From positions 1,618 through 65,617 of the forward strand of contig VBWE01000014.1 in the NCBI GenBank assembly GCA_006218065.1: 64,000 bases of DNA. Reading direction: 5' to 3'. The notes under the pieces were generated by a model. That model did not search any database, had not been told where the DNA came from, and saw only the letters and a list, made by a program, of their open reading frames with translations. Below, one piece after another: positions 18,787 through 58,792 of the stretch (positions are counted from its first letter, which is position 1; every line of letters begins with the position of its first letter). Origin of the DNA: Bacteroidota bacterium (GTDB lineage Bacteria > Bacteroidota > Bacteroidia > Palsa-965). A program made the translations under genes and the position numbers.

Positions 18787-18829
18787 TTCGTTTAAAACTA
18801 TCGTAGTAAAAGGTACTATTTTCGATTGC

Positions 18830-18895
18830 CGATTTTGGATTGGCGATTTTCTCCGCTTTATTCAATCGGCAATCCAAAATCGCCAATCGACAATC
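18830..18895. terminator. Long palindromic GATTGCCGATTTTGG-family element between convergent genes, a likely bidirectional terminator.
   Basis: TCGATTGCCGATTTTGGATTGGCGATTTT …AATCGGCAATCCAAAATCGCCAATCGA forms a stem of about 28 bp. Confidence 0.5.
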
Positions 18896-18898
18896 GGT

Positions 18899-26728: not shown

Positions 26729-26786
26729 CCCGTTTAATGATGCAGTAAAAACTTCGGCAAAGAATTCCCTATGCCAGTCCCCAAAT

Positions 26787-28481
26787 TCAGTATTTGACAA
26801 TGCGGCGCGTCAGCCAGCCTTCGCCGGTATTCAGCCGGAGAAAATAAATTCCGGAGGTATAATCACCGAGCGGAATCTGGTACAGTGCATTTCCGCTGCC
26901 GATTATTTTTCCAGTGACATCCGACAGGAGGAACTCCGTGTAATTTCCCTGTATAAAAAGCAGGTCATGAACCGGGTTAGGATATAAAGCAAGCGCGGGA
27001 ACGCTGACTGATTCCTGCACTGCAGTTGATTCCGGCCCCCATCTGGCTAAAAAACCCTCGGTCATACCAAAATTATTAATCAGGTAAGTGCCGGTGCCCG
27101 GGTCAAGGTCGGTACTGTTTTCAATGTACCCGCCTAAAAACAAGTTTTCACTGATATCCGTTTTACAGCAATAAACTTCCTGTCGTACATTACTGCTGCC
27201 GATTGATTTGAGCGAGCTTAGAGATCCGTTTATTCCGGAAAGATACGCTACAAAAAAATCAGTATTGCCTGGTGTCGAATTCAGCATCATCACACCTGGA
27301 CCGGGATCAAAATCCAGGTTACCGGAATACGTTGCTGCCAAAACGATAGAGCCGGTTGTATAAAAATGCAATGCAAGTGAAGTGATGCAGCCGGTTGAAC
27401 AATGATAGGGTTGGAACCAGAGGAGAGAACCTGCGTTGTCTGTTTTTAATACGAATGCGCTGGCGGTTGGGCCGGAATTGTCTAAAGCGATGCCAGTACC
27501 GGGATCAAAATCAAAAGCAGGAACTGACGGTGTATAACCGGCAATGCAGATATTTCCGGAAGCATCACAGTGAAGCGCACAGGGTATGTTTGAGGTTCCC
27601 TGCTGGTTTCCGTATTGACCGGCGAAAACAAAATTTCCCGCAGTATTCAGTTTCAGCAGAAAGAGCGCACCCTGCGTATCCGTTAGTATGGCAGTTCCCG
27701 GCCCGGGATCAAAATCAGCGGAGTCATGAAACTCCCCGGTAAGCACAATATTTCCCTGCAGGTCCGTAGTCCCCGAGAAGAGTTTGTCAGCAGCAGAGGG
27801 AGATCCGAAAATTTTTGACCATAAATAGTTTCCTCCCGAATCCAATTGCAGTACATAACAATCCTGTCCGCCAATAGTGCCAGGACTGACAGTATTCGGA
27901 CCGGGATCAAAATCAACAGAATCATTCATTGTTCCGCCGATGGTTATCACCGTGTCAGCATGACAGGCCAGGAAAACACCATGCTCATCGGCGGCCGAGC
28001 GCAAACATTTTGCCCATGCCAGGTTGCCCGCACCATTAAACTTAAGAAGGAATGTATTATAATTCGAAGCATTCGAGAGCCAATTTACGCCCGGTCCGGG
28101 ATCAGCATCGAAATTATCGTTGAATTCCCCCATTACGTAAATATTGCCCGAAGCATCCGTTACTACCCGTTTCGCATATCCAAAACCGGTATTACCAAGG
28201 CTCATGCCCCATAAATAGTTGCCGCCGGCATCCAGTTTCTGGATAAAAATATCCGGTCCGCCTGGACCGTTCTCATAAAAATCAGAAAGACCCGGTCCGG
28301 GATCGAGGTCAACCTGCTGTACAAAATAACCTACGCTGATCACGTTGCCGGCCGGATCGATGGCCACATCCGAAACAGTAGAAAAATAGGCTGTCTGGTT
28401 TTCTGCCGCCCAATTGAAGAATTGCGCAGGAACTTTAACTGCCTGGAACAACACCAGTAAAACAAGGATGTTTTTTTTCAT
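26787..28481 (-). CDS. Secreted SBBP-repeat beta-propeller protein with a T9SS type A C-terminal domain.
   Basis: The product has a signal peptide and repeated D.(A/S)GN.Y..G.F motifs (DPAGNVISVGYF, DASGNIYVMGEF, DLQGNIVLTGEF…). The C-terminal ...LYPNPVHDLLFIQ…GIYFLRL…RIVKY is a T9SS tail. Confidence 0.8.
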   Translation of the reverse strand: MKKNILVLLVLFQAVKVPAQFFNWAAENQTAYFSTVSDVAIDPAGNVISVGYFVQQVDLDPGPGLSDFYENGPGGPDIFIQKLDAGGNYLWGMSLGNTGFGYAKRVVTDASGNIYVMGEFNDNFDADPGPGVNWLSNASNYNTFLLKFNGAGNLAWAKCLRSAADEHGVFLACHADTVITIGGTMNDSVDFDPGPNTVSPGTIGGQDCYVLQLDSGGNYLWSKIFGSPSAADKLFSGTTDLQGNIVLTGEFHDSADFDPGPGTAILTDTQGALFLLKLNTAGNFVFAGQYGNQQGTSNIPCALHCDASGNICIAGYTPSVPAFDFDPGTGIALDNSGPTASAFVLKTDNAGSLLWFQPYHCSTGCITSLALHFYTTGSIVLAATYSGNLDFDPGPGVMMLNSTPGNTDFFVAYLSGINGSLSSLKSIGSSNVRQEVYCCKTDISENLFLGGYIENSTDLDPGTGTYLINNFGMTEGFLARWGPESTAVQESVSVPALALYPNPVHDLLFIQGNYTEFLLSDVTGKIIGSGNALYQIPLGDYTSGIYFLRLNTGEGWLTRRIVKY

Positions 28482-28772
28482 GAATACTGCAGTTTAAATT
28501 CTGTGTTCCAGGTAGCGGGAGTGATGTTCATTGCTTCAAACGTACACAACAGGATTATTCCATGGCGTTGCAAATACAGCAGTAAAAGGTGTATTGGGAT
28601 AAAAGGAATAAAAGACGGTCAACTGGCCTGTTGCTGCTGTCTTTCCACCCAACTGATTTACGACAACGAAATCAACATTCCGGTTGACCGCAATAACAGT
28701 AGTATTATTGATCCAACCGAAACACCCGGCACGCGTGTGCAGTTCAAACAAACATTTTTGGCATTCGGAGTT

Positions 28773-31700
28773 CTATTTTCCTCCCGCCCGGATCAGGTGC
28801 AGGAATCCCGTATGTTGCGTAATACCCATGGATGGCACTTCCGCTTCCGCGATATAATAATATACACCATCCGAAGCCGGTTTCCCGGTTTGCATTACCG
28901 TGCCGTCCCAGCCGATATACAGGTCACTGAACTCGTAGATCAGCTGTCCCCAGCGGTTGTAAATACGCACGCGCACGTTTTCTCCGTACGGAATATAAAG
29001 CGTCCAGTTGTCGTTGTTGCCGTCGCCGTTCGGTGTAAATACGTTCGGTATGGTGATCGGGCATTCCACTACATCCACGTTGATAACCGATGAAGCGCTC
29101 CGGCAAAGTCCCGTATGCGTTACGAGGTAAAAAGTCGTGTCGCCCAGCAGCGGCCCGGCGAGGTACGTATTCCCGGTAGTGAGTAAACTTCCGCCGTTGA
29201 ACTGCGTGTACCATTCGATCGTATTTTGTCCCGTGGCATGCAGTTCCGCCAGCTGGCCGATACAAACCGTCGTATCCGTTCCGATCGGCGGTACTAAGTT
29301 GTTCGGCTGCGGGAACATGGAAACGGTATCCTGCGCGGAACATCCGTACTGGTCGGTTGCCACAAGCGTGTACGTGCCGGGCAGGCTCACCCAAACCGAA
29401 TCGCCGGTAAAGTTCCCGGGATTCCAGGAGTACGTTGTTTGTCCCGTATTTGCGATCAGCATGGTCGAGTCGCCTTCGCAGATCGGGTAAGGGCCGAGGA
29501 TACTGGCCTGCGCGGCAACCTGTGTAGCGTTTACCGTAATGGTCGCAGGCGTAACGATACCGCACGACGTGATCAGGCAGGTGTATGTTCCGGGCTGCGT
29601 TACATATTGCGTGAGCGCGCTTCCGCTCAGCGGAGCCTGCCACTGCACCAGGCTTGCCGAATTGGAAATCACGGAAATGGCTACCGTATCGCCGCTGTTA
29701 CATAGGATGGGAGACGGAATCGCCTGCAGGTACGGCGTATTGTACTGCACGATGTTCAGCGTATTGGACACGAGCTGGCAACTGTCATTATCCATGAGTA
29801 CGCAATAATAAAATCCAGGCGAAGTGACGTAAATGGAACTCACATTACCGCCGATCGGTCCGTTCGGTCCCTGCCAGATAAATGTTCCCACGCCGGTGCA
29901 AACCAGCAGCACGGAATCGTTTGGACAGATCACACCATCGCCCGGGTTCATCGTAATGGTGGGCGGTTGTTTTACCGTGACGAAAATGGACGCATTCCCG
30001 AAAATAACCGCATCGCATCCGAACGAATTGGTCACGGTATCGAGATACGAAACTGTGTACGTGCCGGGTTGTGATACGTAAATACTGTCGTTGGTGGAGC
30101 CTGTGCTCCAGTTGTAACCCGGTGCGCCGCTGGCCACGAGCAAAGTCGTATCACCCGGGCAGAGCTGCGTATTGCCGGTGATGGTGATGGGAATTTGCCC
30201 GCCCTGCGGAACGGGCAGCACTTCTATATAATACGTGTGACTGACGATAAACGTATCCGTATCACACGCGCTCGCGCGGATGATCATGCCGGTAATGGTA
30301 TATGTTCCCGTGGAATCCGGGTTCATATTATTCATCGTGAAGGTGACGCAATTCGTGACCGAAGTATAATTGATGCCCCCGGCCGGAGTAACCGTCCATT
30401 GGATTTCATCGAGATACTCGATGCATAGATTCGTAAGCGCATTGGGATTCGTGATACTGTCGTAGATGAACATCGTAAATATGTCATCGTCGCAGATTGA
30501 AATGGAATCGTTGCCGTCGGTATCTTCCAGCAGGAGCATCTGTGGACTCAGCGTATCGAACGGATCGGCGAGTGTAACCAGCACGGTAGTTTGCGAAGAG
30601 CATCCGAACTGGTTGGTGGTCATAATGGTATAATATCCCGAAGTATCGGCGATGATCACCGCCGAAGTATCGCCCCCGTTCGGCCCGACCCAGGAATAGG
30701 TATTGGATAAATTTCCGCCGGTAAGCACTACCGAATCGGCGCAGAGAATGATCGGCGTGGTAATCGTGTCGTTCACGTTTATAAGTTCATCGTCGCTGAT
30801 GGTCGGCAGGGGCGGATCGGGATTGAATACGAGTATGATCGTATCCTGCTGCGTGATACATCCGTCGGCGGAAGTAATTGTGACCGCGTACATGCCGGGA
30901 GCATTTACAAAAATGGACGGTTGCGTTGATCCGGTACTCCAGAGATACGTGAAATCGGGCCCGTTGCTGCTCGAGGGCGAGAACTGCGAGGTTTGTGTCG
31001 CACCGTGCAGTGTAATGTTCGGCGGCGGTTCGCAAACGCTGATCGTATCGCCGAAGCATCCGTAGTCCAGCGTAGTGCTTATAATACAAACGTCGTTGCT
31101 GTCGCGGTTGCAGCCTGATCCCTGGTGGTAATAAAAATCGTACGGCTCGCGCGAAAGATCGATCGCACGTCCCATAAACGCATCCGTCGCCCCGCTGGTC
31201 GGCAGTTTTGCAAAATCGTTGTACCAGTTATCGCCGCAGAAAACCGGCGGAGTAATTACGCCGGGAGTCGGTGTAACATTATAACCGAGGAAACTGACCG
31301 AGACATACGGCACAAAAAGTTCCTGCCCGAAAGCGCCGGCCAGCACCACATCGTTGTTCGTGGTGAGCGCGATGCCGCCCATGCTCTCGTCTTTTTTTCC
31401 GCCCAGTTGCCTGCTCCATTGCCAGGCTCCGGTGGAATTGTACTGCGCCACGAAAATATCCCAGAAGCCCACGCTGTTGAACGTGCTGGTGCCATACTGG
31501 TCGGAATATTCCGTAAACCGGCATTTGAAAAGTCCCGTGATATAAGTGTTGGCGGATGCGTCGGTGGTCACGCTGACCGAAGTAACCTGCGAAGTGGATG
31601 CCGCGGAAGTCGACCAGTCCAGGTTGCCCGCGTTATCATACCGCGCAAGGAAAATGCAGTCGCTGTACAGTCCGCTCAGCGTACTGTTCGTTGTTCCGAA

Positions 31701-32813
31701 AAACGTAAGCGTTCCCTGGAAATCGCCGGTGACCAGTACTTTGTTGTTTACGTCGCAGGTAATGGAATTGGCGATATTCACCGCGCCGCCGCCGATGCGC
31801 CGGAACCATTGTTCCACGCCGTTCGGATCGTACTTCACCACGAAAACGGCATTCACCATATTATTCAGGTGCACCTGGTCGAAGGTGATCGTATCGCTGA
31901 ACTGGCCGGTGATAAAAACGTTGCCGGTGGCGTCGCAGCTTACGTCGAGCCCGCGGTCGGTCATGTGCGCCGATCCTTTTTCCGCCCAGAGCACGTTCCC
32001 GGAAGCATCGTACTTCACGGTAAATACGTCAGTCGTTCCGTTCATGCTCGTAAGCACCTGCGAACCGAAACTGGCCGTGCCTGCAAACTCGCCGGTGATG
32101 ATCACGTTTCCGCTGTTATCCACGGTAATGCCGTTCCCGATATCCGCGCCGGTCCCGCCTCCCGACCGCAGCCAGAGCAGGGTTCCGCTGGGATCGTATT
32201 TCGCCACGAAGACATCCTGCTGCCCGGCGGAAATAACATTCTGTGAAGAAAAAGTCGCTGTATTGTAAAAGAAGCCGGTGATGTAACTGTTCCCGGCAGC
32301 GTCCGCTTTCACGCTCAGCCCGCGGTCCGAGCCTGTACCGCCGCCGCTCACGGCCCACTGGTAAACGCCCGCTGCATTGGTTTTACTCAGGAATACGTCC
32401 GTAATCCCCGCCGCATTCACGTTGAATGTCCCGAAACTGGCGGTAGTACTGTAATAGCCGGTATAATAAAGATTTCCTGCAGCGTCCGAACTCACGTCGG
32501 CAGCCTCGTCGTTGGCCAGCCCGCCCCCGCGCTGCACCCAGTAACTTTGCGCAAAGCTGTTGCCCGAAACGAGCAGTAACAGGAATAAAAAGGCAAAAGG
32601 CAAAAAGCAAACAGCAATACTATGTTTGCCTTTTGCTATTTGCCCTTTGCTATTTGCCCTTTGTTTTTTGCTTTTTTTAAGAAAATAAAAACGTCCTCCC
32701 TGTGAAGCAGGAAAATGCAAAACACAGGTACCTTGGGGGTGTGTCATGTGAGTTTTGTACTTAATGAAGGTATGCTTGCCAAACCAAATATAGGGCAAAG
32801 AGACCGACGGCAC
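28773..32813 (-). CDS. Giant (about 1340 aa) surface adhesin with N-terminal SBBP repeats, multiple Ig-like/PKD-like domains and a T9SS type B (gliding-motility-associated, CHU_C/SprB-like) C-terminal domain. The start is uncertain (32813 or 32750).
   Basis: DAAGNLYYTGYY, DAAGNSYITGFF and DNSGNVIITGEF are SBBP repeats. The C-terminal ...IPNVFTPNGDGNNDNW…RIYNRWGQLIYEF…GWDG… is a type B T9SS domain. The signal peptide h-region is encoded by tandem 14 bp repeats. Confidence 0.8.
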   Translation of the reverse strand: MPSVSLPYIWFGKHTFIKYKTHMTHPQGTCVLHFPASQGGRFYFLKKSKKQRANSKGQIAKGKHSIAVCFLPFAFLFLLLLVSGNSFAQSYWVQRGGGLANDEAADVSSDAAGNLYYTGYYSTTASFGTFNVNAAGITDVFLSKTNAAGVYQWAVSGGGTGSDRGLSVKADAAGNSYITGFFYNTATFSSQNVISAGQQDVFVAKYDPSGTLLWLRSGGGTGADIGNGITVDNSGNVIITGEFAGTASFGSQVLTSMNGTTDVFTVKYDASGNVLWAEKGSAHMTDRGLDVSCDATGNVFITGQFSDTITFDQVHLNNMVNAVFVVKYDPNGVEQWFRRIGGGAVNIANSITCDVNNKVLVTGDFQGTLTFFGTTNSTLSGLYSDCIFLARYDNAGNLDWSTSAASTSQVTSVSVTTDASANTYITGLFKCRFTEYSDQYGTSTFNSVGFWDIFVAQYNSTGAWQWSRQLGGKKDESMGGIALTTNNDVVLAGAFGQELFVPYVSVSFLGYNVTPTPGVITPPVFCGDNWYNDFAKLPTSGATDAFMGRAIDLSREPYDFYYHQGSGCNRDSNDVCIISTTLDYGCFGDTISVCEPPPNITLHGATQTSQFSPSSSNGPDFTYLWSTGSTQPSIFVNAPGMYAVTITSADGCITQQDTIILVFNPDPPLPTISDDELINVNDTITTPIILCADSVVLTGGNLSNTYSWVGPNGGDTSAVIIADTSGYYTIMTTNQFGCSSQTTVLVTLADPFDTLSPQMLLLEDTDGNDSISICDDDIFTMFIYDSITNPNALTNLCIEYLDEIQWTVTPAGGINYTSVTNCVTFTMNNMNPDSTGTYTITGMIIRASACDTDTFIVSHTYYIEVLPVPQGGQIPITITGNTQLCPGDTTLLVASGAPGYNWSTGSTNDSIYVSQPGTYTVSYLDTVTNSFGCDAVIFGNASIFVTVKQPPTITMNPGDGVICPNDSVLLVCTGVGTFIWQGPNGPIGGNVSSIYVTSPGFYYCVLMDNDSCQLVSNTLNIVQYNTPYLQAIPSPILCNSGDTVAISVISNSASLVQWQAPLSGSALTQYVTQPGTYTCLITSCGIVTPATITVNATQVAAQASILGPYPICEGDSTMLIANTGQTTYSWNPGNFTGDSVWVSLPGTYTLVATDQYGCSAQDTVSMFPQPNNLVPPIGTDTTVCIGQLAELHATGQNTIEWYTQFNGGSLLTTGNTYLAGPLLGDTTFYLVTHTGLCRSASSVINVDVVECPITIPNVFTPNGDGNNDNWTLYIPYGENVRVRIYNRWGQLIYEFSDLYIGWDGTVMQTGKPASDGVYYYIAEAEVPSMGITQHTGFLHLIRAGGK

Positions 32814-33143: not shown

Positions 33144-33719
33144 ATGGCTATTAACCTGCAAAAAGGACAGAAGATCGACATTGCGCTGTCCAACATGAGT
33201 GTAGGCCTTGGCTGGAATCCCAATGAAGGCACCGGCCAGGCTTTCGATCTTGACGCTTCGGCGTTCATGCTCAACGAAGGAAGACTGATTCCCACCGAAG
33301 GGCATTTTATTTTCTATGGCAATACCGATTCGCCCGACGGCGGTTTGCATCATACGGGCGATGATCCTACCGGCGGCAACAGCGCTGACGGTGATGATGA
33401 AACCATCATGGTGAACCTGGCCAAAGTAAGTGCGGACATCCAGGAAATTCTTTTCGTGGTTACCATCCATGAAGCCGGCTCGCGCAGGCAGAATTTCGGG
33501 CAGGTGCGCAACTCTTATATCCGTATCGTGGATAACGGGAACGGGACGGAAATCGCGAAATATGAACTCGGCGAAGATTTCTCGGTTGAAACAGCCGTCG
33601 AATTCGGGCGTCTTTATAAGCGTGACGGAAAATGGAAATTCGAAGCTTCCGGCATCGGTTATAAAGAAGAACTCGCTTACTTCGTAGAGAAGTACTATAA
33701 AGGACAAGTCATTAAATAA
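33144..33719 (+). CDS. TerD-family stress protein (TerD paralog 1).
   Basis: MAINLQKGQKIDI…VGLGWNPN…FDLDASAFML…GDDPTGG..ADGDDE.I.V.L is the canonical TerD fold signature including Ca-binding Asp pairs. The ATG lies inside a longer ORF frame that starts at 33027. Confidence 0.9.
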   Translation: MAINLQKGQKIDIALSNMSVGLGWNPNEGTGQAFDLDASAFMLNEGRLIPTEGHFIFYGNTDSPDGGLHHTGDDPTGGNSADGDDETIMVNLAKVSADIQEILFVVTIHEAGSRRQNFGQVRNSYIRIVDNGNGTEIAKYELGEDFSVETAVEFGRLYKRDGKWKFEASGIGYKEELAYFVEKYYKGQVIK

Positions 33720-33752: not shown

Positions 33753-34427
33753 ATGGCAATTAACCTGCAAAAGGGTCAAACCATTGACCTTCGCAAAAAC
33801 GATCAAGGTGAAAGTTTCGATCTTTCCCAGGTGACCATCGGCCTCGGATGGGACATGCGTAAAAAAGAAGGCGGCGGTTTTCTCGGAAAACTTTTCGGCG
33901 GAAAAGAAGAGGATTATGACCTCGATGCGGTTGCATTCCTGATGGATGCGAGCGACAAAGTGGCCAACCTGGGCCGCACCGTGCAGCATCCGAACGGCAT
34001 GAAAGTGCCGCTGTTCGAAAGCGACGTCATTTACTTCAACTCGCAGCGCCACCCTTCGGGGCATATCTGGCTTACCGGCGATAACCGCACGGGAGCAGGT
34101 GACGGCGACGACGAACAGATCATCGTGAAACTTGACGCGCTCGAGCAGCGTTTCCAGAAAGTGATGTTCCTGGTTACCATTTACCAGGGCAAACAAAAAG
34201 GCCAGCATTTCGGTATGGTTGCCAATGCGTATATCCGTGCGGTAGATGCCCGCGGAAAAGAAATTGCGCGTTACAACCTGTCGGGCGACGCCAGCATGAA
34301 CGGCATGGCCGGTATGGTTTTCGCCGAAGTGTACCGTAAGGACGGCACCTGGAAATTCCGCGCGCTCGGCAACCCGCAGAACACCGATAACTTTATCGAA
34401 GTACTTCGCCAGCACGTATATCAATGA
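33753..34427 (+). CDS. TerD-family protein (paralog 2, with inserts).
   Basis: MAINLQKGQTIDL…IGLGWD…YDLDAVAFLM…LTGDNRTGAGDGDDEQIIVKLD is a TerD signature. Confidence 0.9.
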   Translation: MAINLQKGQTIDLRKNDQGESFDLSQVTIGLGWDMRKKEGGGFLGKLFGGKEEDYDLDAVAFLMDASDKVANLGRTVQHPNGMKVPLFESDVIYFNSQRHPSGHIWLTGDNRTGAGDGDDEQIIVKLDALEQRFQKVMFLVTIYQGKQKGQHFGMVANAYIRAVDARGKEIARYNLSGDASMNGMAGMVFAEVYRKDGTWKFRALGNPQNTDNFIEVLRQHVYQ

Positions 34428-35119
34428 GCATACTGACCGGCGTCAGCCATATATCGTTCGATCTGTGGCTGACGCTGATCCGGTCAGCGCCCGGTTTTAA
34501 ACCGGAACGCGACCGTTTGCTCGCCGGTCATTTCGGCATTCAGCGTTCGCCGGAAAAAATTTCGGAAACGGTCAGGCATTTCGACCGGCTTTTCGACCGG
34601 GTGAGTATGATTACCGGGAAAAGTATCGATGCGGATGAAATCGTCCTGGTGATACTGGACGCGCTCGGGGCGGATATTTCAGCCGTGAGCCGCGAACAAT
34701 TGCAGCGTTTTTATGTTGATATGGAAGACTTGTTTTTTTCAAGCCCCCCTGTTCTCATCGATCCGCAAATGCCGCATCACCTGGAAAAGCTCCGGGAAAA
34801 GGGATTTACGCTGAGCCTGTTGAGCAACACGGCGTTTATCAGGGGTAAAACATTAAGAAAAATACTGGCGCATTATGAAATGGATATACATTTTGATTTC
34901 CAGCTTTATTCGGATGAGATCGGTTACGCCAAACCTGCGCCCGGCGCTTTTGCCTGTTTATGGCAGGAAGCAAAAAAACGCCGCAGCCTGGAAAAGGAAA
35001 TGATCCTGCATATCGGCGATAATCCCGACGCCGATGTAAAAGGCGCTTCGGATTTCGGCATGCGGGCGGCTTTGTTCAACCGGCAGGAAACCGCGCTGGC
35101 CGATATGCTGGAATGCTGA
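34424..35119 (+). CDS. HAD-superfamily hydrolase (phosphatase-like) with a non-canonical motif I.
   Basis: Motif I is ISFDLWLTL, motif II LSLLSNT, the motif III Lys is in YAKP, and motif IV is GDNPDAD. The ATGA overlap with the upstream TerD gene indicates translational coupling. Confidence 0.7.
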   Translation: MSILTGVSHISFDLWLTLIRSAPGFKPERDRLLAGHFGIQRSPEKISETVRHFDRLFDRVSMITGKSIDADEIVLVILDALGADISAVSREQLQRFYVDMEDLFFSSPPVLIDPQMPHHLEKLREKGFTLSLLSNTAFIRGKTLRKILAHYEMDIHFDFQLYSDEIGYAKPAPGAFACLWQEAKKRRSLEKEMILHIGDNPDADVKGASDFGMRAALFNRQETALADMLEC

Positions 35120-35155
35120 TGAACGGGATTTTCCCGTGTAAACAACAGGAATGAG

Positions 35156-35998
35156 ATGATTGTAAAACAGGCTTTAAAATTCGAAACGTTTTCCCTGCAT
35201 AAAATTCATGCGGCAGATACGCTCGCGTTCAGCGCGGAAGCTTACAGCCGGTTTAAATTCGGTCATGGCGGGTACGCGGAACAGTTCGGCCGCGAACTGG
35301 CGCTGAAATTTATCCGCGCGCACAGTGAACTGCTTTTATCCGAAGAAAAGATCGTCCTGCTGCCGAGTCCTTACGATTCCATTCCCACCGCTTCCAATGC
35401 CATGGCGCGTTCGTTCCGCACGGTACTGAATGCGTTCCTGGCCCGCCACGAAAAAAAATCGCTGCTCGAATCCAAAATACACCGCTACAAAACGTACAGC
35501 GTGGATTACGGCAACCTGGATTTTGAAGAAAGACTGCGGCTGATCTCGGCCGATACATATCATATCGACCGCGATTTCCTGAAAGAAGGACTCGTGCTGC
35601 TTATCGACGATGTGCGCATTACCGGGAGCCACGAACTGATGATCCGCAACCTGATCCGGAAAAATGAAGTCCCCGGCCATTTCGTATTCCTGTATTACGC
35701 CGAACTGGCCGACAAATCCGTCGCTCCCGATTTTGAGAATTACCTGAACTACTTTTTTGTGAAGGATATCCGGGGCATTCTCGAGATGATTCATGCGGAT
35801 TTCTTTATTTTTAACACAAGGGTGATCAAGTACATCCTGGGCTGCGATCAAAAACAGTTCGGGCTGGTGCTGGAAACCGTTCAAAAGGATAAACTGGTGC
35901 AATTGTGCGATCATGCGTTCGGCAACAATTACCACCTGATGACCGAATACAAAGAAAACCTCGAACGCATTCAACAACACATCCACTATGGCCATTAA
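35156..35998 (+). CDS. Phosphoribosyltransferase (PRTase)-fold protein of the ter-associated type.
   Basis: LVLLIDDVRITGSHEL is a PRPP-binding loop. The ORF overlaps the next TerD start by 11 bp. Confidence 0.7.
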   Translation: MIVKQALKFETFSLHKIHAADTLAFSAEAYSRFKFGHGGYAEQFGRELALKFIRAHSELLLSEEKIVLLPSPYDSIPTASNAMARSFRTVLNAFLARHEKKSLLESKIHRYKTYSVDYGNLDFEERLRLISADTYHIDRDFLKEGLVLLIDDVRITGSHELMIRNLIRKNEVPGHFVFLYYAELADKSVAPDFENYLNYFFVKDIRGILEMIHADFFIFNTRVIKYILGCDQKQFGLVLETVQKDKLVQLCDHAFGNNYHLMTEYKENLERIQQHIHYGH

Positions 35999-36539
35999 TC
36001 TTCAGAAAGGACAGCGCGAAAATATCAACGTGCCCAAATTCACCGTCGGTCTCGGCTGGGACGCCAACAGCAGCGCTACGGGAGGCGAGTTCGATCTCGA
36101 CGCTTCGGTATTCCTGCTCACCGAAAATCACAAAATTCCCGGCGACGATTATTTTGTTTTTTACAACAACAAAGTTTCCGGCGACGGATCGGTGACGCAT
36201 TCCGGCGACAACCGCACGGGCGCCGGCGACGGTGACGACGAGCAGGTGGTAGTCGACCTCTCGAAAGTAAATCCGCAGGTTACGCAGATCTGTATCGTGG
36301 TAACCATTCACGAAGCCGAAGCACGCCGCCAGAATTTCGGACAGGTGCGCAATGCCTTTATCCGCATCATCGACGCGAGCGGAGCGGAACTGGTGAAATA
36401 CGATCTCGACGAAGATTTCTCGATCGAAACGGCCGTGGAATTCGGACGCATTTACAACCGCAGCGGCCAGTGGAAATTCGAAGCCGTGGGCGTAGGCATG
36501 CAGGGCGGATTAGGTGATTATCTTACAAAGTATACGTAA
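35988..36539 (+). CDS. TerD-family protein (paralog 3).
   Basis: MAINLQKGQRENI…VGLGWDAN…FDLDASVFLL…GDNRTGAGDGDDEQVVVDL is a TerD signature. Confidence 0.9.
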   Translation: MAINLQKGQRENINVPKFTVGLGWDANSSATGGEFDLDASVFLLTENHKIPGDDYFVFYNNKVSGDGSVTHSGDNRTGAGDGDDEQVVVDLSKVNPQVTQICIVVTIHEAEARRQNFGQVRNAFIRIIDASGAELVKYDLDEDFSIETAVEFGRIYNRSGQWKFEAVGVGMQGGLGDYLTKYT

Positions 36540-36540
36540 T

Positions 36541-36720
36541 GTTCACGTCTCGTCTATCGCTCGACGTGACAAGCCGGCGTTTCAAGTCTAAAGTTTCAAG
36601 TTTAATGTTTCAGGTTTTGTAACGCATCAGATCAAAAGACAAAACGTTGAACATTAAACTTTAAACCTGAAACTTTAGACTTGAAACATTGAACAGTAAG
36701 CAGAACTCTCCGAAGGAATA
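36541..36720. repeat. Post-stop conserved hairpin (CACGTC-N13-GACGTG) followed by a roughly 110 bp complex palindrome (TTTCAAGTCTAAAGTTTCAAG…CTTGAAACTTTAGACTTGAAA).
   Basis: The inverted repeats are directly visible in the sequence. Confidence 0.7.
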
Positions 36721-36742: not shown

Positions 36743-37381
36743 ATGAGAAGACTACCCGTTTACCTCCTGCTCGACACGTCGGGCTCAATGACAGGAGAAC
36801 CGATTGAAGCAGTGAAGAACGGCGTACAGGTGCTTATTTCCACCCTTCGCCAGGATCCGTATGCGCTCGAAACCGCTTACATCAGCGTAGTGACGTTCAA
36901 TACGACCGCTTCGCAGCTGATTCCGCTCACCGATCTTTCTTCGTTCCAGATGCAGGACATCAAAGCCGGCGGATCAACGGCACTTGGCGATGGTCTGAAA
37001 GTACTGGCCGAATGTATCGACCGCGAAGTGGCGAAAAGCACAGCCGAAACCAAAGGCGACTGGAAACCGCTTGTCTTTATAATGACGGACGGTGGTCCCA
37101 CCGACCAGTGGCAGGCAGGCCTCGCCGAATTCCAGAGAAGGAAAGTCGGTGTGATCGTAGCCTGTGCGGCCGGCAGTGGCGCGGATACCAACGTACTCAA
37201 GCAGGTTACCGACGTGGTGGTTTCGCTCGACACGGCTGATTCGGCCACGATCAAAGCCTTTTTCAAATGGGTTTCCGCGTCGATCAGCACCGGCAGCCAG
37301 AAAGTGGAAAGCGGCGAGAAGGAAGTGGGCGGCCTCAGCGAATTACCGCCGCCGCCGCCGGAAGTGAATATAGTGGTGTAA
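36743..37381 (+). CDS. TerY-type von Willebrand factor A domain protein.
   Basis: MRRLPVYLLLDTSGSM is a MIDAS DxSxS motif. The 212 aa product has a C-terminal PPPPPE tail. Confidence 0.85.
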   Translation: MRRLPVYLLLDTSGSMTGEPIEAVKNGVQVLISTLRQDPYALETAYISVVTFNTTASQLIPLTDLSSFQMQDIKAGGSTALGDGLKVLAECIDREVAKSTAETKGDWKPLVFIMTDGGPTDQWQAGLAEFQRRKVGVIVACAAGSGADTNVLKQVTDVVVSLDTADSATIKAFFKWVSASISTGSQKVESGEKEVGGLSELPPPPPEVNIVV

Positions 37382-37587: not shown

Positions 37588-38223
37588 ATGAGACGCCTAC
37601 CTGTATATCTTTTACTGGACACTTCGGGTTCTATGCGCGGGGAACGGATCGAGGCGGTGAAAAACGGCCTGCAGGTACTCCTGTCGAAACTTCGCCAGGA
37701 CCCGCATGCGCTGGAAACGGTCTGGATGAGCATCATCACCTTCGACCGCGAAGTGCACCAGGTACTTCCGCTCACCGATCTCGAATCGCTGCAGATGCCC
37801 GAAATCCTCACGCCCGAGTCGGGTCCGACGAACATGGGCGCTGCGCTGGAAATGCTGCTGCAGAAATCCGACGCGGAAGTGATCCGCAGCACCGACGATC
37901 AGAAAGGCGACTGGCGCCCGCTGCTGTTCCTGATGACCGACGGAAAACCTTCGGACCTCGCCGCTTTCCGCGAAGTCGTCCCGAAAGTGAAAAAGAAAAA
38001 TTTCGCCGCCATCATCGCCTGCGCCGCCGGAGCAGAAGCGCAGGACAGTTTCCTGAAAGAACTGACGGATATCGTCGTTCACCTGGACACGGCCGACAGC
38101 AATACGCTGGTTTCTTTCTTCAAATGGGTATCCGCTTCCATCGGTACGGGAAATATGAGCGTCAGTTCTACCGATCAGCTCATCCTTCCGCCGCCGCCGG
38201 ATGAAGTGCACATGATTATTTAA
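37588..38223 (+). CDS. TerY-type vWA domain protein (second paralog).
   Basis: MRRLPVYLLLDTSGSMRGERIEAVKNG is a MIDAS motif. The protein is about 50 % identical to the upstream vWA. Confidence 0.85.
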   Translation: MRRLPVYLLLDTSGSMRGERIEAVKNGLQVLLSKLRQDPHALETVWMSIITFDREVHQVLPLTDLESLQMPEILTPESGPTNMGAALEMLLQKSDAEVIRSTDDQKGDWRPLLFLMTDGKPSDLAAFREVVPKVKKKNFAAIIACAAGAEAQDSFLKELTDIVVHLDTADSNTLVSFFKWVSASIGTGNMSVSSTDQLILPPPPDEVHMII

Positions 38224-38469: not shown

Positions 38470-38727
38470 ATGAAAACATTTTTTTTCCTGTTCCTGAATG
38501 TTTTGATCATTGGCTTGTTCCTGTTTTCAAAATTATTGCCTTACAAGGACAAGCTCGGTAAACAGTACGCAGGAATATTCCGGTTCTTCCAGGCCATTTT
38601 CGACCCGGTGCTCAACTTCATGCGGAAGTTGTTCAAACCGGCGCAGGTAGGGCAGGGACTGGCGGTGGATATGGCGCAGATCATTTTACTGGTGCTGCTT
38701 TTAATCCTGCTGAATTTTTGCAGATGA
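38470..38727 (+). CDS. Small two-TM membrane protein (85 aa), possibly YggT-like.
   Basis: The ORF has two hydrophobic helices. Confidence 0.4.
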   Translation: MKTFFFLFLNVLIIGLFLFSKLLPYKDKLGKQYAGIFRFFQAIFDPVLNFMRKLFKPAQVGQGLAVDMAQIILLVLLLILLNFCR

Positions 38728-38734: not shown

Positions 38735-38815
38735 TCCGAATGGCGAATGCCGAACTCCGAATGTTGAATTGCGAATTTTGCATTCGGCATTCGACATTCG
38801 GAGTTCGAAATTCAA
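38735..38815. repeat. Nested palindrome and hairpin (CGAACTCCGAATG…CATTCGGAGTTCG, with GAATGCCGA…TCGGCATTC inside).
   Basis: It is visible in the sequence. It is related to the GAATGCCGA repeats at 165-215. Confidence 0.6.
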
Positions 38816-38850: not shown

Positions 38851-39903
38851 ATGAGAAGACTACCCATTTATTTCCTGATCGACATCTCCGAATCGATGGT
38901 GGGCGAACCCATCCAGATGGTGGAAGAAGGTCTTGCCACGATCATCAAGGCGCTGAAAGAAGATCCCTATGCACTCGAAACGGTGCATGTATCCATCATC
39001 GTTTTTGCCGGCCAGCCGAAAACGCTGGTTCCGCTGCAGGAGATCATCAACTTCTACCCGCCGCGTTTCCCCATCGGCGGCGGTACTTCGCTGGGCAACG
39101 GGCTCGGGCACCTTATGTACGAACTGCGGAAAAATACGATCATGACCACGCTCGAACAAAAAGGCGACTGGAAACCGATCGTATTCCTGTTTACCGACGG
39201 CGTTCCGACGGATGATTCGTCGACCGCGATCGCGGAATGGAAAAAGAATTGGGCCAGCAAAGCCAGCATGGTTGCCGTTTCTTTCGGAAGTGAAACCGAC
39301 CTGGCCCTGCTCAAGGAACTTACCGATACCACGTTCATGTTCAAGAATACGAACGTGAACCAGTACAAGGAATTTTTCAAATGGGTTACCGCTTCCATCC
39401 GCACCAGCAGTCTGAGCGTGGAAAACAACGGTTCCGGTTTCGAACTGGCCAAGCCCGACGACGCTGTGATCGCGAAAGTGGACCATGTGGAGAACCATAA
39501 GCCCAAACAGTTTGTTGATACCAACTACGCGGTCTTCGTGGCCAAATGCCAGAACACGAAAAAACCGTACCTGATGAAATACAAACGTATGGTTCGTCCC
39601 ACGACGGTCGGCGGAATGGAGATGAACAGCCTGGTGTACCGCCTCAACGGCGCGTTCATCATCGACGATCTGTATTTCGAATTGTCGGACAACAACGCAG
39701 TGAACAATAAAATCAGCACCGACGAGATGGAAGGATTTCCGACCTGCCCTTCGTGCGGAAACCAGTACGGTTTCAGCGTGTGCAGCTGCGGCAAAATGCA
39801 CTGCGTGGGCAATGAAGAAACAAGCACCTGCCCGTGGTGCGGAAACCAGGGCAAATACGGATTCGGCGAAGGCCGCATGGACATTAATACCACGCAGGGT
39901 TAA
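38851..39903 (+). CDS. TerY-type vWA domain protein with a C-terminal Cys-rich zinc-ribbon module.
   Basis: MRRLPIYFLIDISESM is a MIDAS motif. The C-terminal CPSCGNQYGFSVCSCGKMHCVGNEETSTCPWCGN is a zinc ribbon. The TAATG overlap couples it to the downstream phosphatase gene. Confidence 0.85.
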   Translation: MRRLPIYFLIDISESMVGEPIQMVEEGLATIIKALKEDPYALETVHVSIIVFAGQPKTLVPLQEIINFYPPRFPIGGGTSLGNGLGHLMYELRKNTIMTTLEQKGDWKPIVFLFTDGVPTDDSSTAIAEWKKNWASKASMVAVSFGSETDLALLKELTDTTFMFKNTNVNQYKEFFKWVTASIRTSSLSVENNGSGFELAKPDDAVIAKVDHVENHKPKQFVDTNYAVFVAKCQNTKKPYLMKYKRMVRPTTVGGMEMNSLVYRLNGAFIIDDLYFELSDNNAVNNKISTDEMEGFPTCPSCGNQYGFSVCSCGKMHCVGNEETSTCPWCGNQGKYGFGEGRMDINTTQG

Positions 39904-41318
39904 TGGAACGCGACCTCCGGAAAGATTATATCAAGAGATTACTGGCTTCGAAGCGGATGGAAATTCCGCAGAAGCAGGCGGATTTTTTCGACCGTTTTGT
40001 CGATGATGCCGAAATACTGAACCATTATCAAAGCATAAATAACGCTGCACGAAATATCATGGACACCTGGAAAGAACGCTCGGTCATCGAAGATATCCGT
40101 ACCAAGCATATTCAACTGCCGAATGCGACCGTAGGCAAACCCTACAGTTTCGAATTTTCCCTGGCGAAAATGGGACTGCAGCACATAGAAGAATTCGAGA
40201 TCGACGGTTTTTCGGAACTCGGCCTGAACTTCGATAAAGCCACCGGCATCTTATCCGGCGCGCCCGGGATGAAAGGCGAACATAAAATCAAGTTCCGTTA
40301 TAAACTCGACTTCGGCGCAGAGGAGAGGTCTTTCCATGAAAAGGAACTGACCTTCGTAGTGAATCCCGATCCGAAATCGCTCTGGCAGAATTTACCTTCG
40401 GACAAAGAAGACAAATTCTGGAAAGAAGACAATACTTCGGCGAAGTATGAAATCGCCGGCCGTCATCTCGTGGTGGGTTCCAAGCGGGGCCGCAGCCATG
40501 CGCACGAAGGAAAATTCCGCGACGACGAATATGATTTCTTTTTTGACGAATCGACCGGTTTCGGCGTGATCGTGGTTTCCGACGGGGCCGGCAGTGCGAA
40601 ATATTCGCGGAAAGGTTCGCTGATCGCCTGCGAAAGTGTGGTCGAATATTTTTCGAAAGAAATTCCAGCCGAAGAATACGCCGCGCTCGATGCGACGATT
40701 ATTTCGCATCACCAGGCCAAAACAGACGAAAGTTCGAAAACGCTGCGCGAGTTCCTGGTCAGCCGTCTCGCGAAAGCGGCTTTTTACGCTCACCAGAAAA
40801 TCAAAACCTGTGCGGACGAAAACGAATCCGCCCTGCGGGATTTTTCCGCCACCTTACTGTATTCATTGGTCCGGAAATATGATTTCGGTTATTGCATCAT
40901 GTCTTTCGGCATCGGCGACGGCGGCATCGGTATTTACGACAAGGAGAAAGGCGAATCGCACCTGCTCACCACGCCCGACGGCGGCGAGTTTGCGGGGCAG
41001 ACGCGTTTCGTGACGATGCCCGACATTTTTACGAGCGAAGGATTCTACAACCGGGTTTCGTTTAAGATCGTGGACAATTTCACGGCGCTCGTGCTGATGT
41101 CCGACGGCATTACCGATCCGAAATTCCAGACCGACGCCAACCTCGGCCGCGTGGAAAAATGGGCGGAACTCTGGGAAGATCTCGGCGGAAAAAATGCGGA
41201 CAACGCAACAGTCAAATTCGATCCTGCCAATGAAAATATCGAAGCGGAACTGCTGGACTGGATGGATTTCTGGTCACCCGGGAACCACGACGACAGGACG
41301 ATCGCCATACTGTATTGA
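39903..41318 (+). CDS. PP2C-family Ser/Thr phosphatase with an N-terminal extension domain.
   Basis: GVIVVSDGAGSA is PP2C motif 1/2 and LVLMSDGITD is the C-terminal metal-binding motif. Confidence 0.75.
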   Translation: MERDLRKDYIKRLLASKRMEIPQKQADFFDRFVDDAEILNHYQSINNAARNIMDTWKERSVIEDIRTKHIQLPNATVGKPYSFEFSLAKMGLQHIEEFEIDGFSELGLNFDKATGILSGAPGMKGEHKIKFRYKLDFGAEERSFHEKELTFVVNPDPKSLWQNLPSDKEDKFWKEDNTSAKYEIAGRHLVVGSKRGRSHAHEGKFRDDEYDFFFDESTGFGVIVVSDGAGSAKYSRKGSLIACESVVEYFSKEIPAEEYAALDATIISHHQAKTDESSKTLREFLVSRLAKAAFYAHQKIKTCADENESALRDFSATLLYSLVRKYDFGYCIMSFGIGDGGIGIYDKEKGESHLLTTPDGGEFAGQTRFVTMPDIFTSEGFYNRVSFKIVDNFTALVLMSDGITDPKFQTDANLGRVEKWAELWEDLGGKNADNATVKFDPANENIEAELLDWMDFWSPGNHDDRTIAILY

Positions 41319-41382
41319 TTAAATTCCGAATTCGTACATTCGTAAGGATTTGTAATTCGCAGCCCCGAAGGAAAACAATCTT

Positions 41383-42912
41383 ATGTCAAACACGATCACC
41401 ATCAAAGCGCTCGACGGAAGCACCGTTCAGTATGTCGACAACGGCTCGCCGATGCAGGGCGGGCTGAAGGATGTGTATTTCAGTCCCGATAAAAGTTACG
41501 TGGTCGCTTTTTTCCGCGACAAGCTCAAGCCGGTGGAATATACGCAGACCAAAGAGCGCCTGATCATGATCGCCAACACGTTCCGGGAACGGATTTTCAA
41601 CCAGGCAGGCGGCGAGTACTGGAAAGACCTGTACTGCTGGCCGACCAAAGTGGTTGAATATAACGGCAGGCTCGGTGTGGTTGCGCCGGTTTACCAGAAG
41701 CATTTCTTTTTCGCCACCGGGTATAACCAGAACGCTGCGCAGATCGCGAGTATCAGGGGAAAAGAAAAAGAAGGCAAGTGGTTCGCCGCGCCGCAGTTCC
41801 GCAACGCGAATTTCAAACTGCATCTCGATAAAAAAGAACTCGGCGACTGGTTTAAATATTTCCTGGTCTGCATTCGTATCAGCCGCGCGGTGCGCCGTAT
41901 GCATGCCGCCGGTCTCGCGCATTCCGACCTCTCGTATAAAAACGTACTCATCGATCCCACCACCGGCAACGCGGCCATCATCGATATCGACGGGCTCGTG
42001 GTCCCGGGCAAGTTTCCGCCCGACGTGATCGGTACGCCCGATTTTATCGCGCCCGAAGTCATGGCTACGAAAAGCCTCGGGAAAACCGATCCGAACCGGA
42101 AACTGCCGAGTATCCAGACCGACCGGCACGCGCTGGCCGTGATGATCTATATGTACCTGCTTTATCGTCACCCGCTGCGTGGCGGCAAAGTGCACGATCT
42201 CGATCCGCAGAAAGATGAAGAACTGTCCATGGGCTCGAAAGCCCTGTTCGTGGAGCATCCGACCGACGCCGCGAACCGGCCGAAACTGAAACACGTCAAA
42301 GCGACGCACCTGCCCTGGGCCGACGTAACGAAATTGCCATACACCATCACCGGGCCGTACCTGAAACAACTTTTCGACAAAGCGTTTATCGACGGATTGC
42401 AGCACCCGATGCAGCGGCCGACAGCCGACGAGTGGGAGCAGGCGCTGATCAAAACGGTGGACCTGATGCAGCCCTGCCAGAACCCGCGCTGCGACCAGAA
42501 ATGGTTCGTGTTCGACAATTCCACCACGCCTATCTGCCCGTTCTGCAACACACCTTATAAAGGCCAGCTGCCGATCCTCAACCTCTACTGGCAGCGTTCC
42601 CCGGGAAAATGGGTGGAAGAAAAACACCGCCTGATGGTTTATAATAACCAGTACATTTACCAGTGGCACATCAACCGGACGATTTCGCCGAACGAACGAC
42701 TTTCGGCCGAACAGAAAAAACCGGTCGGTTATTTCGTGATGCACGGCGGAAAATGGATGCTCGTGAATCAAACCATGAACAGCCTGAAAGACGTAACGGA
42801 GAATAAAGAAATTCCCATCGGCCAGATGATCGAACTTACCGACGGTAAACAGATTCTTTTATCGAATGCCGATGGCGGAAGACTCGTCATCGTTCAACTT
42901 GTAAACAACTAA
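41383..42912 (+). CDS. Eukaryotic-like Ser/Thr protein kinase with a C-terminal Cys-rich region.
   Basis: HSDLSYKNVLID is the catalytic loop HxDxxxxN, IDIDGL the DFG equivalent and GTPDFIAPE the APE motif. The C-terminal CQNPRCDQ…CPFCN is Cys-rich. Confidence 0.8.
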   Translation: MSNTITIKALDGSTVQYVDNGSPMQGGLKDVYFSPDKSYVVAFFRDKLKPVEYTQTKERLIMIANTFRERIFNQAGGEYWKDLYCWPTKVVEYNGRLGVVAPVYQKHFFFATGYNQNAAQIASIRGKEKEGKWFAAPQFRNANFKLHLDKKELGDWFKYFLVCIRISRAVRRMHAAGLAHSDLSYKNVLIDPTTGNAAIIDIDGLVVPGKFPPDVIGTPDFIAPEVMATKSLGKTDPNRKLPSIQTDRHALAVMIYMYLLYRHPLRGGKVHDLDPQKDEELSMGSKALFVEHPTDAANRPKLKHVKATHLPWADVTKLPYTITGPYLKQLFDKAFIDGLQHPMQRPTADEWEQALIKTVDLMQPCQNPRCDQKWFVFDNSTTPICPFCNTPYKGQLPILNLYWQRSPGKWVEEKHRLMVYNNQYIYQWHINRTISPNERLSAEQKKPVGYFVMHGGKWMLVNQTMNSLKDVTENKEIPIGQMIELTDGKQILLSNADGGRLVIVQLVNN

Positions 42913-42933: not shown

Positions 42934-43746
42934 ATGGATCAACTGCAAATTTACATCGACCAGATTATTCAAAACCCGCTTGCAGCGCTGGCTGTGATCG
43001 GTAACCTGATTGTTATCGAGAGCCTGCTTTCCGTGGACAACGCGGCCGTACTGGCCACGATGGTTATGGATTTACCCAAAGAGCAACGTGCCAAGGCCCT
43101 TCGTTACGGGATTATCGGCGCTTACGTTTTCCGCGGACTCTGTCTTTTGTTTGCCGCTTACCTGATCACGATCTGGTGGCTGAAGCCGCTCGGCGGATTA
43201 TACCTGCTGTATCTCGTTTTCGATTATTTCAAGGGTAAAATGACGCCGGATAAAGAAGAAGACGTGCTCGAAAAACAATCGCACTGGATGTACCGCGCCA
43301 CGATCGGCTGGATGGGCCAGTTCTGGGCTACGGTAGCGCTCGTGGAAATTATGGACCTGGCGTTTTCCATCGACAACGTATTCGCCGCGGTGGCTTTCAG
43401 TGAAAACCTGGTCCTGATCTGGGTCGGCGTGTTCATCGGTATTCTCGCGATGCGTTTCGTTGCGCAGGGATTCGTAAAATTGATGGAACGTTACAAGTTC
43501 CTGGAAACGGCAGCGTTCGTGGTTATCGCCGTGCTGGGCATCAAGCTCATGCTCTCGCTGCTTGAACATTTTTACCCGGATCACGCGTTCAGCAAATTTC
43601 TCGGAAGTCACGCCGCCGACTGGGGTGTGTCGATCATTACTGTTTCCATCTTCTTCATTCCGATCATCACCAGCACCTTGTTCAATTTCCCGAAACGCGG
43701 CGTGCCGGGAGAGAGCGAGGAAAGTAAAGAGGAAGAGAGTAAGTAG
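42934..43746 (+). CDS. TerC-family integral membrane protein.
   Basis: The 270 aa product has about 7 TM helices and the typical TerC pattern (…SVDNAAVLATMV… / …SIDNVFAAVAF…). Confidence 0.85.
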   Translation: MDQLQIYIDQIIQNPLAALAVIGNLIVIESLLSVDNAAVLATMVMDLPKEQRAKALRYGIIGAYVFRGLCLLFAAYLITIWWLKPLGGLYLLYLVFDYFKGKMTPDKEEDVLEKQSHWMYRATIGWMGQFWATVALVEIMDLAFSIDNVFAAVAFSENLVLIWVGVFIGILAMRFVAQGFVKLMERYKFLETAAFVVIAVLGIKLMLSLLEHFYPDHAFSKFLGSHAADWGVSIITVSIFFIPIITSTLFNFPKRGVPGESEESKEEESK

Positions 43747-43840: not shown

Positions 43841-43885
43841 CGCCTGCCAGCCTCCTCCGCCTCAGGCGGAGGAGGCTGGCAGGCG
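43841..43885 (+). terminator. Perfect 21 bp-stem palindrome downstream of the TerC gene.
   Basis: CGCCTGCCAGCCTCCTCCGCC-TCA-GGCGGAGGAGGCTGGCAGGCG. Confidence 0.6.
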
Positions 43886-58548: not shown

Positions 58549-58792
58549 GCATCAGGGAGATATAAAATTCCTTCGGAATAAATCGTTTACCAGATATGAG
58601 ATGTGAGATATGAGACTCCGTATTTCATCACATACATGTATGCTTCCGTTTGCTGTTAATTATGCTGACAACTCGCTCAGCAAGTCTCAAATCTCAAGTC
58701 TCACATCTCATATCTGGTAAAACAGACGTATTGAATTGTTTACTTTTTATTTCCCTGATCACAATTTTAAACACACCTTCCGGAACTGAAGG

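Follow-up and report, generated by a model that had tools for sequence, protein, structure and literature searches.

The window analysed here, a stretch of 64,000 nucleotides (nt) from contig VBWE01000014.1 of a metagenome-assembled Bacteroidota genome, carries an operon of the Ter (TerD/TerY/TerC) stress-response/defence type with two adjacent genes at 34424-35998 for a haloacid dehalogenase (HAD)-superfamily enzyme and a phosphoribosyltransferase (PRTase) of the PRTase_3 family. On the evidence of the sequence, the two genes probably form the minimal two-enzyme biosynthetic module of the operon and would make a riboside. The locus is the two-enzyme Ter module already predicted by Anantharaman, Iyer and Aravind (2012, Mol Biosyst 8:3142) and, as that module is described in the papers citing the study, differs from it in nothing essential.

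The operon contains three TerD genes, two TerY genes and genes for a TerY_C protein, a PP2C phosphatase, a kinase and TerC, with the HAD and PRTase_3 genes inside; the products of the latter two are both labelled hypothetical in GenBank. A first-pass annotation had described them as a HAD-like hydrolase with a non-canonical motif I and a PRTase, overlapping the flanking TerD genes. The positions of the open reading frames (ORFs), the quoted motifs and the TerD overlaps (ATGA and 11 nt) were all confirmed by direct reading, and alignment to curated families (PF00702, E 1.8e-10; PF15610, E 9.7e-74) showed that the motifs had been assigned correctly. The features of the pair are as follows.

34424..35119, + strand: HAD-superfamily enzyme with a C1 cap, 231 amino acids (aa); PF00702/PF13419/PF13242
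34457..34477, + strand: HAD motif I FDLWLTL, read directly, with Trp at Asp+2
35156..35998, + strand: PRTase_3, ComF-like type I phosphoribosyltransferase, 280 aa; PF15610, E 9.7e-74
35594..35632, + strand: phosphoribosyl pyrophosphate (PRPP)-binding loop VLLIDDVRITGSH, PRTase residues 147-159, read directly

The HAD protein and its motif I tryptophan

The HAD protein matched the Pfam families Hydrolase, HAD_2 and Hydrolase_like with E values of 2e-10 to 2e-6. In the PF00702 alignment, which pairs residues 10-212 with profile positions 4-191, D13 occupied the nucleophile position. Motif I (FDLWLTL) comprises residues 12-18, with the D13 codon at 34460-62 and the W15 codon at 34466-68. Motif II (LSLLSNT) comprises residues 130-136 (34811-34831), the YAKP sequence residues 168-171 (34925-34936) and motif IV (GDNPDAD) residues 198-204 (35015-35035). 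The nucleophile D13, T17 at the +4 position, S134 of motif II, K170 of motif III and D199/D204 of motif IV are all present; the second motif I aspartate (Asp+2) is replaced by W15. At the nucleotide level, an imperfect 22-nt inverted repeat (34435-34480, 82% complementary, 2-nt loop) spans the first HAD codons including motif I, and may be due to chance.

An AlphaFold2 model of the HAD protein, built from a 24-sequence alignment (pLDDT 94.7), had a Rossmannoid core with a four-helix C1 cap (helices 25-106) after strand 1. Foldseek matched this model at a probability of 1.0 to many HAD structures, of which subfamily-IA-like HADs were nearest. The best match was 2om6, the Pyrococcus horikoshii protein PH0253 (E 3e-12, TM 0.71), and 2om6, 1x42 and 3k1z all had E values of about 1e-11. 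Further neighbours were PH0459, HDHD3, the YfnB nucleotidase, L-2-haloacid dehalogenases and the HAD domain of the T. composti ribofuranosyltransferase 7shg. Only sub-threshold NCBIfam matches were obtained (REG-2-like, YjjG nucleotidase and type II dehalogenase), and the protein therefore falls into no curated NCBIfam equivalog. Assignment to the type II L-2-haloacid dehalogenases was rejected, TIGR01428 giving 41.1 bits against a cutoff of 125.4 over residues 114-223 only.

Conservation was examined in a divergent alignment at 24-37% identity that included homologues from a Rhizobium plasmid, a coliphage and a Rhizobium phage as well as fusion proteins. Residues S11, D13, W15, T17, R29, P109, S134, N135, S163, K170, H196, G198, D199, D204 and G212 were invariant. 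W15 was likewise invariant in 24 close homologues. An exhaustive HMMER search without a word seed yielded 144 HAD representatives at 50% identity; 130 of them have Trp at Asp+2, and most of the remaining 14 are N-terminally truncated or were missed by the simple pattern. Trp was also found in all HADs of our genome locus set, the best 80 of 541 loci and nearly all from Bacteroidota; this 80/80 count is not independent evidence, since one of the two genome-scan seeds contained SFD[LM]W. Homologues from Rhizobium plasmids and from phages keep the residue down to identities of 24-33%, and the solved PH0253 has the same DxW in its motif I, FDVWNTL.

Judged from these alignments, tryptophan at Asp+2 is a signature of the clade and not a local defect. 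The non-canonical motif I of the first-pass annotation is thus real but not peculiar to the window protein, being clade-wide and present in PH0253. In the HAD-like protein of the classical enterobacterial ter locus, motif I is the canonical DLDDT, so the tryptophan marks the HAD clade that travels with PRTase_3 and not Ter HADs generally. PDB searches with the N-terminal 67 residues of the HAD and with an N-terminal profile, aimed at the Asp+2 residue in 7shg and other PDB HADs, returned helical-repeat noise only.

The PRTase_3 protein and its linkage to the HAD

The PRTase matched PF15610 over profile positions 3-262 of 264 with a score of 248.5 bits (cutoff 28.7). The PF15610 and PF15616 (TerY_C) families reportedly derive from the 2012 study of Anantharaman et al. 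Within the PRPP loop VLLIDDVRITGSH, D152, I155, T156, G157 and H159 were invariant in divergent homologues, and D151 is Asp everywhere except for a Glu in one domain of the fusion protein P0319. The description of this loop as textbook holds for its hhhhDD..TG core but not for its end, an invariant, family-typical His where canonical type I PRTases have Thr or Ser. About 18 residues outside the loop were invariant as well.

The AlphaFold2 model of the PRTase (pLDDT 91.3) showed a type I PRT core and, at the C-terminus, about 90 residues forming a helical domain peculiar to the family. Foldseek matched it to HGPRT, ComF, PurF, PyrR and ShosT at a probability of about 1.0 and TM scores of 0.3-0.4, H. 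pylori ComF being among the matches; the low scores (0.30-0.38) are due to the extra C-terminal domain. A PRTase_3 profile found no PDB chain at E <= 1, 7shg included, and 7shg was absent from the top 50 Foldseek matches of the model.

In the genome set, the HAD gene was directly followed by the PRTase_3 gene in 73 of the 80 loci, mostly with gaps of -26 to +9 nt. TerD was present in 72 of these 73 paired loci, whose usual order is a TerD array, two vWA genes (a YggT-like gene), TerY_C, PP2C, kinase and TerC. In the window, ATGA at 34424-34427 joins the stop of the second TerD gene to the HAD start, and the same -4 gap occurs in 9 related loci. The PRTase stop (35998) overlaps the start of the third TerD gene (35988) by 11 nt, an overlap shared by 24 of 67 related loci; codons for the PRTase C-terminus (YGN-stop or YGH-stop) and for the TerD N-terminus (MAINL) thereby use the same bases at 35988-35998. 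In other related loci the PRTase frame runs 32-67 nt into TerD.

Natural fusions of the two proteins were also found, with the order HAD-PRTase_3 in P0357, P0365 and P0371 and PRTase_3-HAD-PRTase_3 in P0319, all having the DxW motif I. One contig (L083 1222-3795) has a free PRTase_3 gene followed by a fusion gene. Pairing in 73 of 80 loci, the tiny gaps or overlaps and the fusions together dismiss the possibility, foreseen in the first-pass annotation, that the HAD is a common housekeeping paralogue.

Four Chitinophagaceae loci (L014, L032, L034 and L052) have an intact DxW HAD gene directly before TerC and no PRTase gene; their HAD and TerC genes are located between molybdopterin and GrpE/DnaJ genes (L014 9983-11466). 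In L005 and L031 an intact DxW HAD gene, again with no PRTase, lies among unrelated genes. L039 is a seventh locus without PRTase_3, possibly because its contig stops short of the gene.

Outside this set, the Rhizobium plasmid pRL10 carries the two genes in the same order and overlapping; no TerD is listed nearby, the PLSDB gene tables being incomplete. About 157 phage genomes carry both genes as the same overlapping pair, a DxW HAD followed by PRTase_3, with nearly identical taxon counts for the HAD and PRTase_3. The carriers include phAPEC8/phi92-like coliphages, Klebsiella, Rhizobium and Brevundimonas phages and Caulobacter jumbo phages, and PHROGs labels the two families 'hydrolase' and 'unknown function'. 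In coliphage tuntematon (L084 6325-7801), the pair is followed by genes for a phosphatase and a TerC-like membrane protein and by a 'tellurite resistance' gene, and it adjoins ribonucleotide reductases. Overlapping phage pairs with a DxW HAD also occur at L085 4070-5585 and L087 6337-7870. The pair lies beside NMNAT/Nudix in Rhizobium phage Y65 and among hypothetical genes in Caulobacter jumbo phage CcrPW.

An expanded metagenomic variant (L089 7001-11311 and L090) comprises the DxW HAD, three tandem PRTase_3 paralogues and a C-C_Bond_Lyase (PF15617), with TerD nearby, and a phage-like contig has the order TerD, HAD, PRTase_3, TerF-like vWA. The distant loci L084, L089 and L091 also hold Ter components. 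The pair noted in the TerD array thus recurs with TerD, TerC, TerF-like vWA or C-C_Bond_Lyase genes in distant lineages, but it is found on Rhizobium plasmids and in phages too. The HAD is thus specialised as a partner for PRTase_3, while the pair is mobile and not strictly confined to TerD arrays.

Predicted pathway and competing explanations

Starting from the observed folds, motifs, conservation, gene linkage and fusions, we infer two reactions, a product and a connection to TerD. PRTase_3 would move 5-phosphoribose from PRPP onto an acceptor nucleophile, for which a heterocycle resembling a base is the most plausible candidate; the resulting 5'-phosphoribosyl adduct would be nucleotide-like. 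The HAD, with Asp13 as the nucleophile that forms an aspartyl-phosphate and Mg2+ held on Asp199/Asp204, would then strip the 5'-phosphate to leave a riboside, a 'nucleoside-like metabolite'. The invariance of the HAD catalytic residues and of the PRTase_3 residues speaks for both enzymes being active and having a specific substrate. Trp15 would stand in for the Asp+2 general acid/base and probably forms part of the wall of the substrate pocket where core and cap meet. Since the specificity of C1 HADs is set at the core-cap junction, it may line the leaving-group pocket there, possibly stacking on a ring. Proton transfer would be performed by another residue or be dispensable, and the invariant H196 and R29, the latter in the cap, might handle the proton or bind phosphate. 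The overlapping, translationally coupled genes would yield product in proportion to TerD, presumably as a ligand or signal for TerD/TerY-P/TerC, and the predicted product may be the TerD ligand.

PMC11994780, citing Anantharaman et al. (2012), describes Ter biosynthetic modules of two or five enzymes in which a PRTase and a HAD are always present and the product is likely a pyrimidine-derived ribonucleoside. PMC7824862 likewise includes the biosynthesis of nucleoside or nucleotide derivatives (PRTases and HAD-fold phosphoesterases) in the Ter system, which some phages carry. The first-pass annotation had proposed a phosphoribosylated small molecule coupled to the TerD/TerY machinery. A PRPP-derived small molecule tied to Ter agrees with the published model in so far as these accounts present it; since the pair includes a HAD phosphatase, however, the end product is expected to be a dephosphorylated riboside and not a phosphoribosylated compound.

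We have considered what else the two proteins might do. HAD pseudo-enzymes exist and Trp replaces Asp+2 in every HAD member, which could suggest a non-catalytic ligand-binding or scaffold subunit, a role raised in the first-pass annotation. P-type ATPases and phosphonatase also lack Asp+2, and the invariance of D13, T17, S134/N135, K170, D199 and D204 across 24-60% identity would be unexpected for a pseudo-enzyme. With every other catalytic and Mg-binding residue invariant, such a binding-only role is very improbable. The PRTase-fold enzyme CriT of H. influenzae Bcs3 transfers ribose-5-phosphate from PRPP, after which the HAD phosphatase CrpP removes the 5-phosphate; in CrpP, presented there as the phosphatase that operates in this pathway, the first Asp of DxD is conserved and the second is not (PMC10299916), so the absent general acid does not exclude dephosphorylation by the window HAD. 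We also regard it as unlikely that the HAD performs some other reaction, such as pyrophosphate hydrolysis pulling the PRTase, preparation of the acceptor upstream, or C-X cleavage of the dehalogenase or azetidine-hydrolase type. Its structural neighbours do include L-2-haloacid dehalogenases, which have Tyr at +2, azetidine-2-carboxylate hydrolase and the pyrophosphatase BT2127; it matches TIGR01428 (haloacid dehalogenase type II) at E 1.8e-10, and it precedes the PRTase, both in operons and within most fusion chains. All its NCBIfam matches are nevertheless far under cutoff (e.g., 41 vs 125 bits), its motif IV acidic Mg2+ pair is invariant whereas dehalogenases do not use one, and BT2127 retains DxD, an Asp13Asn mutant being listed among the structural matches. 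The order of the genes is a poor guide to that of the reactions: 7shg is also arranged HAD-then-transferase, and its phosphatase acts second.

A reading of the pair as an autonomous mobile cassette of nucleotide metabolism (modified-nucleoside salvage or synthesis, or NAD-type metabolism in phages), placed among TerD genes for co-regulation only, draws on its solitary position on pRL10 and on its phage neighbours, namely NMNAT/Nudix, ribonucleotide reductases and hypothetical genes. It too is unlikely, given that 72 of the 73 paired Bacteroidota loci embed the genes in TerD arrays with translational overlaps, that distant loci again have TerD, TerF-like vWA, TerC or C-C_Bond_Lyase beside the pair, and that the PLSDB tables are incomplete. 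Finally, PRTase_3 could be a ComF/PyrR-like regulator that binds nucleotides or nucleic acids and is not a transferase. The 'ComF-like' Pfam name, the match to H. pylori ComF and the lack of a solved relative in the sequence search are compatible with this, but the PRPP loop and many polar residues beyond it are invariant, and obligatory pairing or fusion with a phosphatase suits a two-step pathway; we rate such a regulator as highly unlikely.

Several points weigh against the favoured reading, a two-enzyme riboside pathway serving the Ter operon. The literature search found no experimental work on PRTase_3, the HAD clade or PH0253. PRTase_3 is not known to be catalytic, and PRT domains of the ComF type may have non-enzymatic roles. 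Loss of Asp+2 normally cripples HAD phosphatases, and a different chemistry would be possible. The HAD occurs without PRTase_3 in 6 of the 80 loci, and this locus set is biased to Bacteroidota and to Trp because it holds the closest of 541 loci and one seed contained SFD[LM]W. TerD need not be the receptor, since Rhizobium plasmids and many phages have the pair but no TerD.

Extending the riboside reading, and with clearly less confidence, we suggest that the pair might be a self-contained, horizontally mobile 'riboside synthase' cassette found in the Ter operons of Bacteroidota, on plasmids of rhizobia and in over 150 large phages. Its non-canonical riboside might then be a diffusible signal or effector of Ter-type defence that phages mimic or exploit, and the tryptophan a base-stacking specificity platform in a HAD phosphatase without the canonical general acid.

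Operon layout and comparison with known systems

The remaining genes of the operon are listed below.

33144..33719, + strand: TerD paralogue 1; PF02342, E 2.5e-66; protein begins MAINLQKGQ
33753..34427, + strand: TerD paralogue 2; PF02342, E 7.3e-55; stop overlaps the HAD start
35988..36539, + strand: TerD paralogue 3; PF02342, E 1.3e-71
36743..37381, + strand: TerY-like vWA protein; PF00092, E 5e-14
37588..38223, + strand: second TerY-like vWA protein; PF00092, E 1.3e-13
38470..38727, + strand: small YggT-family membrane protein, 85 aa; PF02325, E 4e-6, 27.5 bits vs cutoff 27
38851..39903, + strand: vWA + TerY_C metal-binding protein, first member of the TerY-P triad; PF15616, E 1.5e-44, and PF00092
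39903..41318, + strand: PP2C phosphatase of the TerY-P triad; PF13672, E 1.3e-34
41383..42912, + strand: Ser/Thr kinase of the TerY-P triad; PF00069, E 1e-9
42934..43746, + strand: TerC/YkoY-family membrane protein, last gene of the operon; PF03741, E 6e-52; TIGR03716, 251 bits vs cutoff 138.5

All three TerD paralogues share the N-terminus MAINLQKGQ. A TTG at 33027 as the ORF start of the first paralogue is probably over-extended, the TerD domain and the conserved start being at 33144. The YggT-like ORF comes after the second vWA gene and before the TerY_C gene, a position kept in many related loci. The vWA/TerY_C, PP2C and kinase genes are consecutive at 38851-42912 and make up the TerY-P triad, which is said to have been described by Anantharaman, Iyer and Aravind in 2012. 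Phage defence has been shown for triads related to TerY-P (PMC10542128). PADLOC gave no model match for the triad and none for the HAD or TerD proteins; its one match, of the PRTase to ShosT, was marginal (E 6e-4). A catalogued defence system is thus not supported.

An Rfam scan gave only sub-threshold miRNA-like matches, which are plain palindromes, and no riboswitch before TerC. A scan for sigma-70 promoters and terminators did not rise above shuffled controls; such a scan is in any case ill-suited to Bacteroidota. Near-perfect long intergenic hairpins built of short periodic units were observed, two of them within the operon: one at 36575-36690 between the third TerD gene and the first vWA gene (minimum free energy (MFE) -47.2 kcal/mol, z -8.1) and one at 38745-38813 (MFE -43.4, z -6.2) that separates the YggT-like ORF from the TerY_C gene. 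The window has further hairpins of this kind outside the operon (5984-6121, 18818-18897, 43841-43885, 58586-58721 and 60713-60801), which suggest a genome-wide class of intergenic repeats or terminators that is not Ter-specific. The upstream flank (23474-32813) contains an ORF that, from its translation alone, was judged to encode a PAS/hybrid sensor kinase. Two large secreted repeat proteins are encoded upstream on the minus strand, the smaller one (26787-28481) having a Pfam-confirmed type IX secretion sorting tail. RecJ is encoded downstream of the operon on the minus strand (44016-45731).

Ter operons, widely found in environmental bacteria as well as on plasmids for virulence and resistance, are linked to resistance to tellurite, phage and colicin. 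Our literature search found no paper identifying the predicted nucleoside-like product of the Ter biosynthetic genes. The same search, in which the 2012 study was represented by the papers citing it, did not turn up the family-wide Asp+2 to Trp signature, limited to the PRTase_3-partnered HAD clade, nor the HAD-PRTase_3 fusions, the conserved PRTase/TerD overlap or the size of the phage reservoir. These four features make the Ter metabolite more approachable and are not surprising in themselves. The window locus is the simplest version of the Ter pathway, with two enzymes only. For reconstituting that pathway in vitro and so identifying the metabolite, the single-chain fusions and the coliphage homologues offer a practical entry. 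The conserved replacement of Asp+2 by Trp raises a modest question of enzymology, that of a Mg-dependent HAD phosphatase without a general acid. With this locus a known predicted system has been rediscovered. Current understanding is not changed by the locus itself.

Among known systems, the two-enzyme Ter module, as represented in the citing papers, likewise has a PRTase and a HAD among TerD, TerY-P and TerC and the same predicted product class; in the window and its relatives the PRTase and HAD genes are adjacent, co-inherited and embedded with TerD, TerY and TerC. The five-enzyme ter module of the IncHI2/R478 type shares vWA, TerY_C, PP2C, kinase, TerD and TerC genes, a PRTase and a HAD-like protein, and differs in its extra ATP-grasp, HpcH/citrate-lyase-like and StiP genes. 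Its PRTase was not detected by tblastn with the window PRTase_3. The HADs of the five- and two-enzyme modules are non-orthologous, as the classical ter HAD has a canonical motif I. In E. coli IncHI2 pHM16-1 (L086 9373-10146, minus strand), a 'hypothetical protein' encoded between the PRTase and StiP genes has the HAD motif I LSDLDDTLF.

CriT/CrpP and the T. composti protein 7SHG follow the same logic, ribose-5-phosphate transfer by a PRTase fold and then dephosphorylation by a HAD. The window HAD matches the 7shg HAD domain (profile E 6.5e-7, TM 0.70), and the HAD-then-transferase order of 7shg is that of the natural fusions of the window pair. The acceptor of CriT/7SHG is a polysaccharide hydroxyl, however, and the window locus has no capsule genes. 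Membership of the CriT/7SHG type was rejected, the transferase half having no sequence match or top-50 structural match and only the HAD half being similar.

PH0253 (2om6), an uncharacterised 'probable phosphoserine phosphatase', is the best sequence match of the window HAD (E 3.9e-17, full length) and differs from it in being archaeal and only 20% identical. The L-2-haloacid dehalogenases (1jud, 1zrm) have the same C1-capped HAD fold and the S-N of motif II. The type I PRTases HGPRT, ComF, PurF and ShosT share the core fold and the acidic DD..TG PRPP loop of PRTase_3, which is set apart from them by its C-terminal helical domain and the invariant His that ends the loop.

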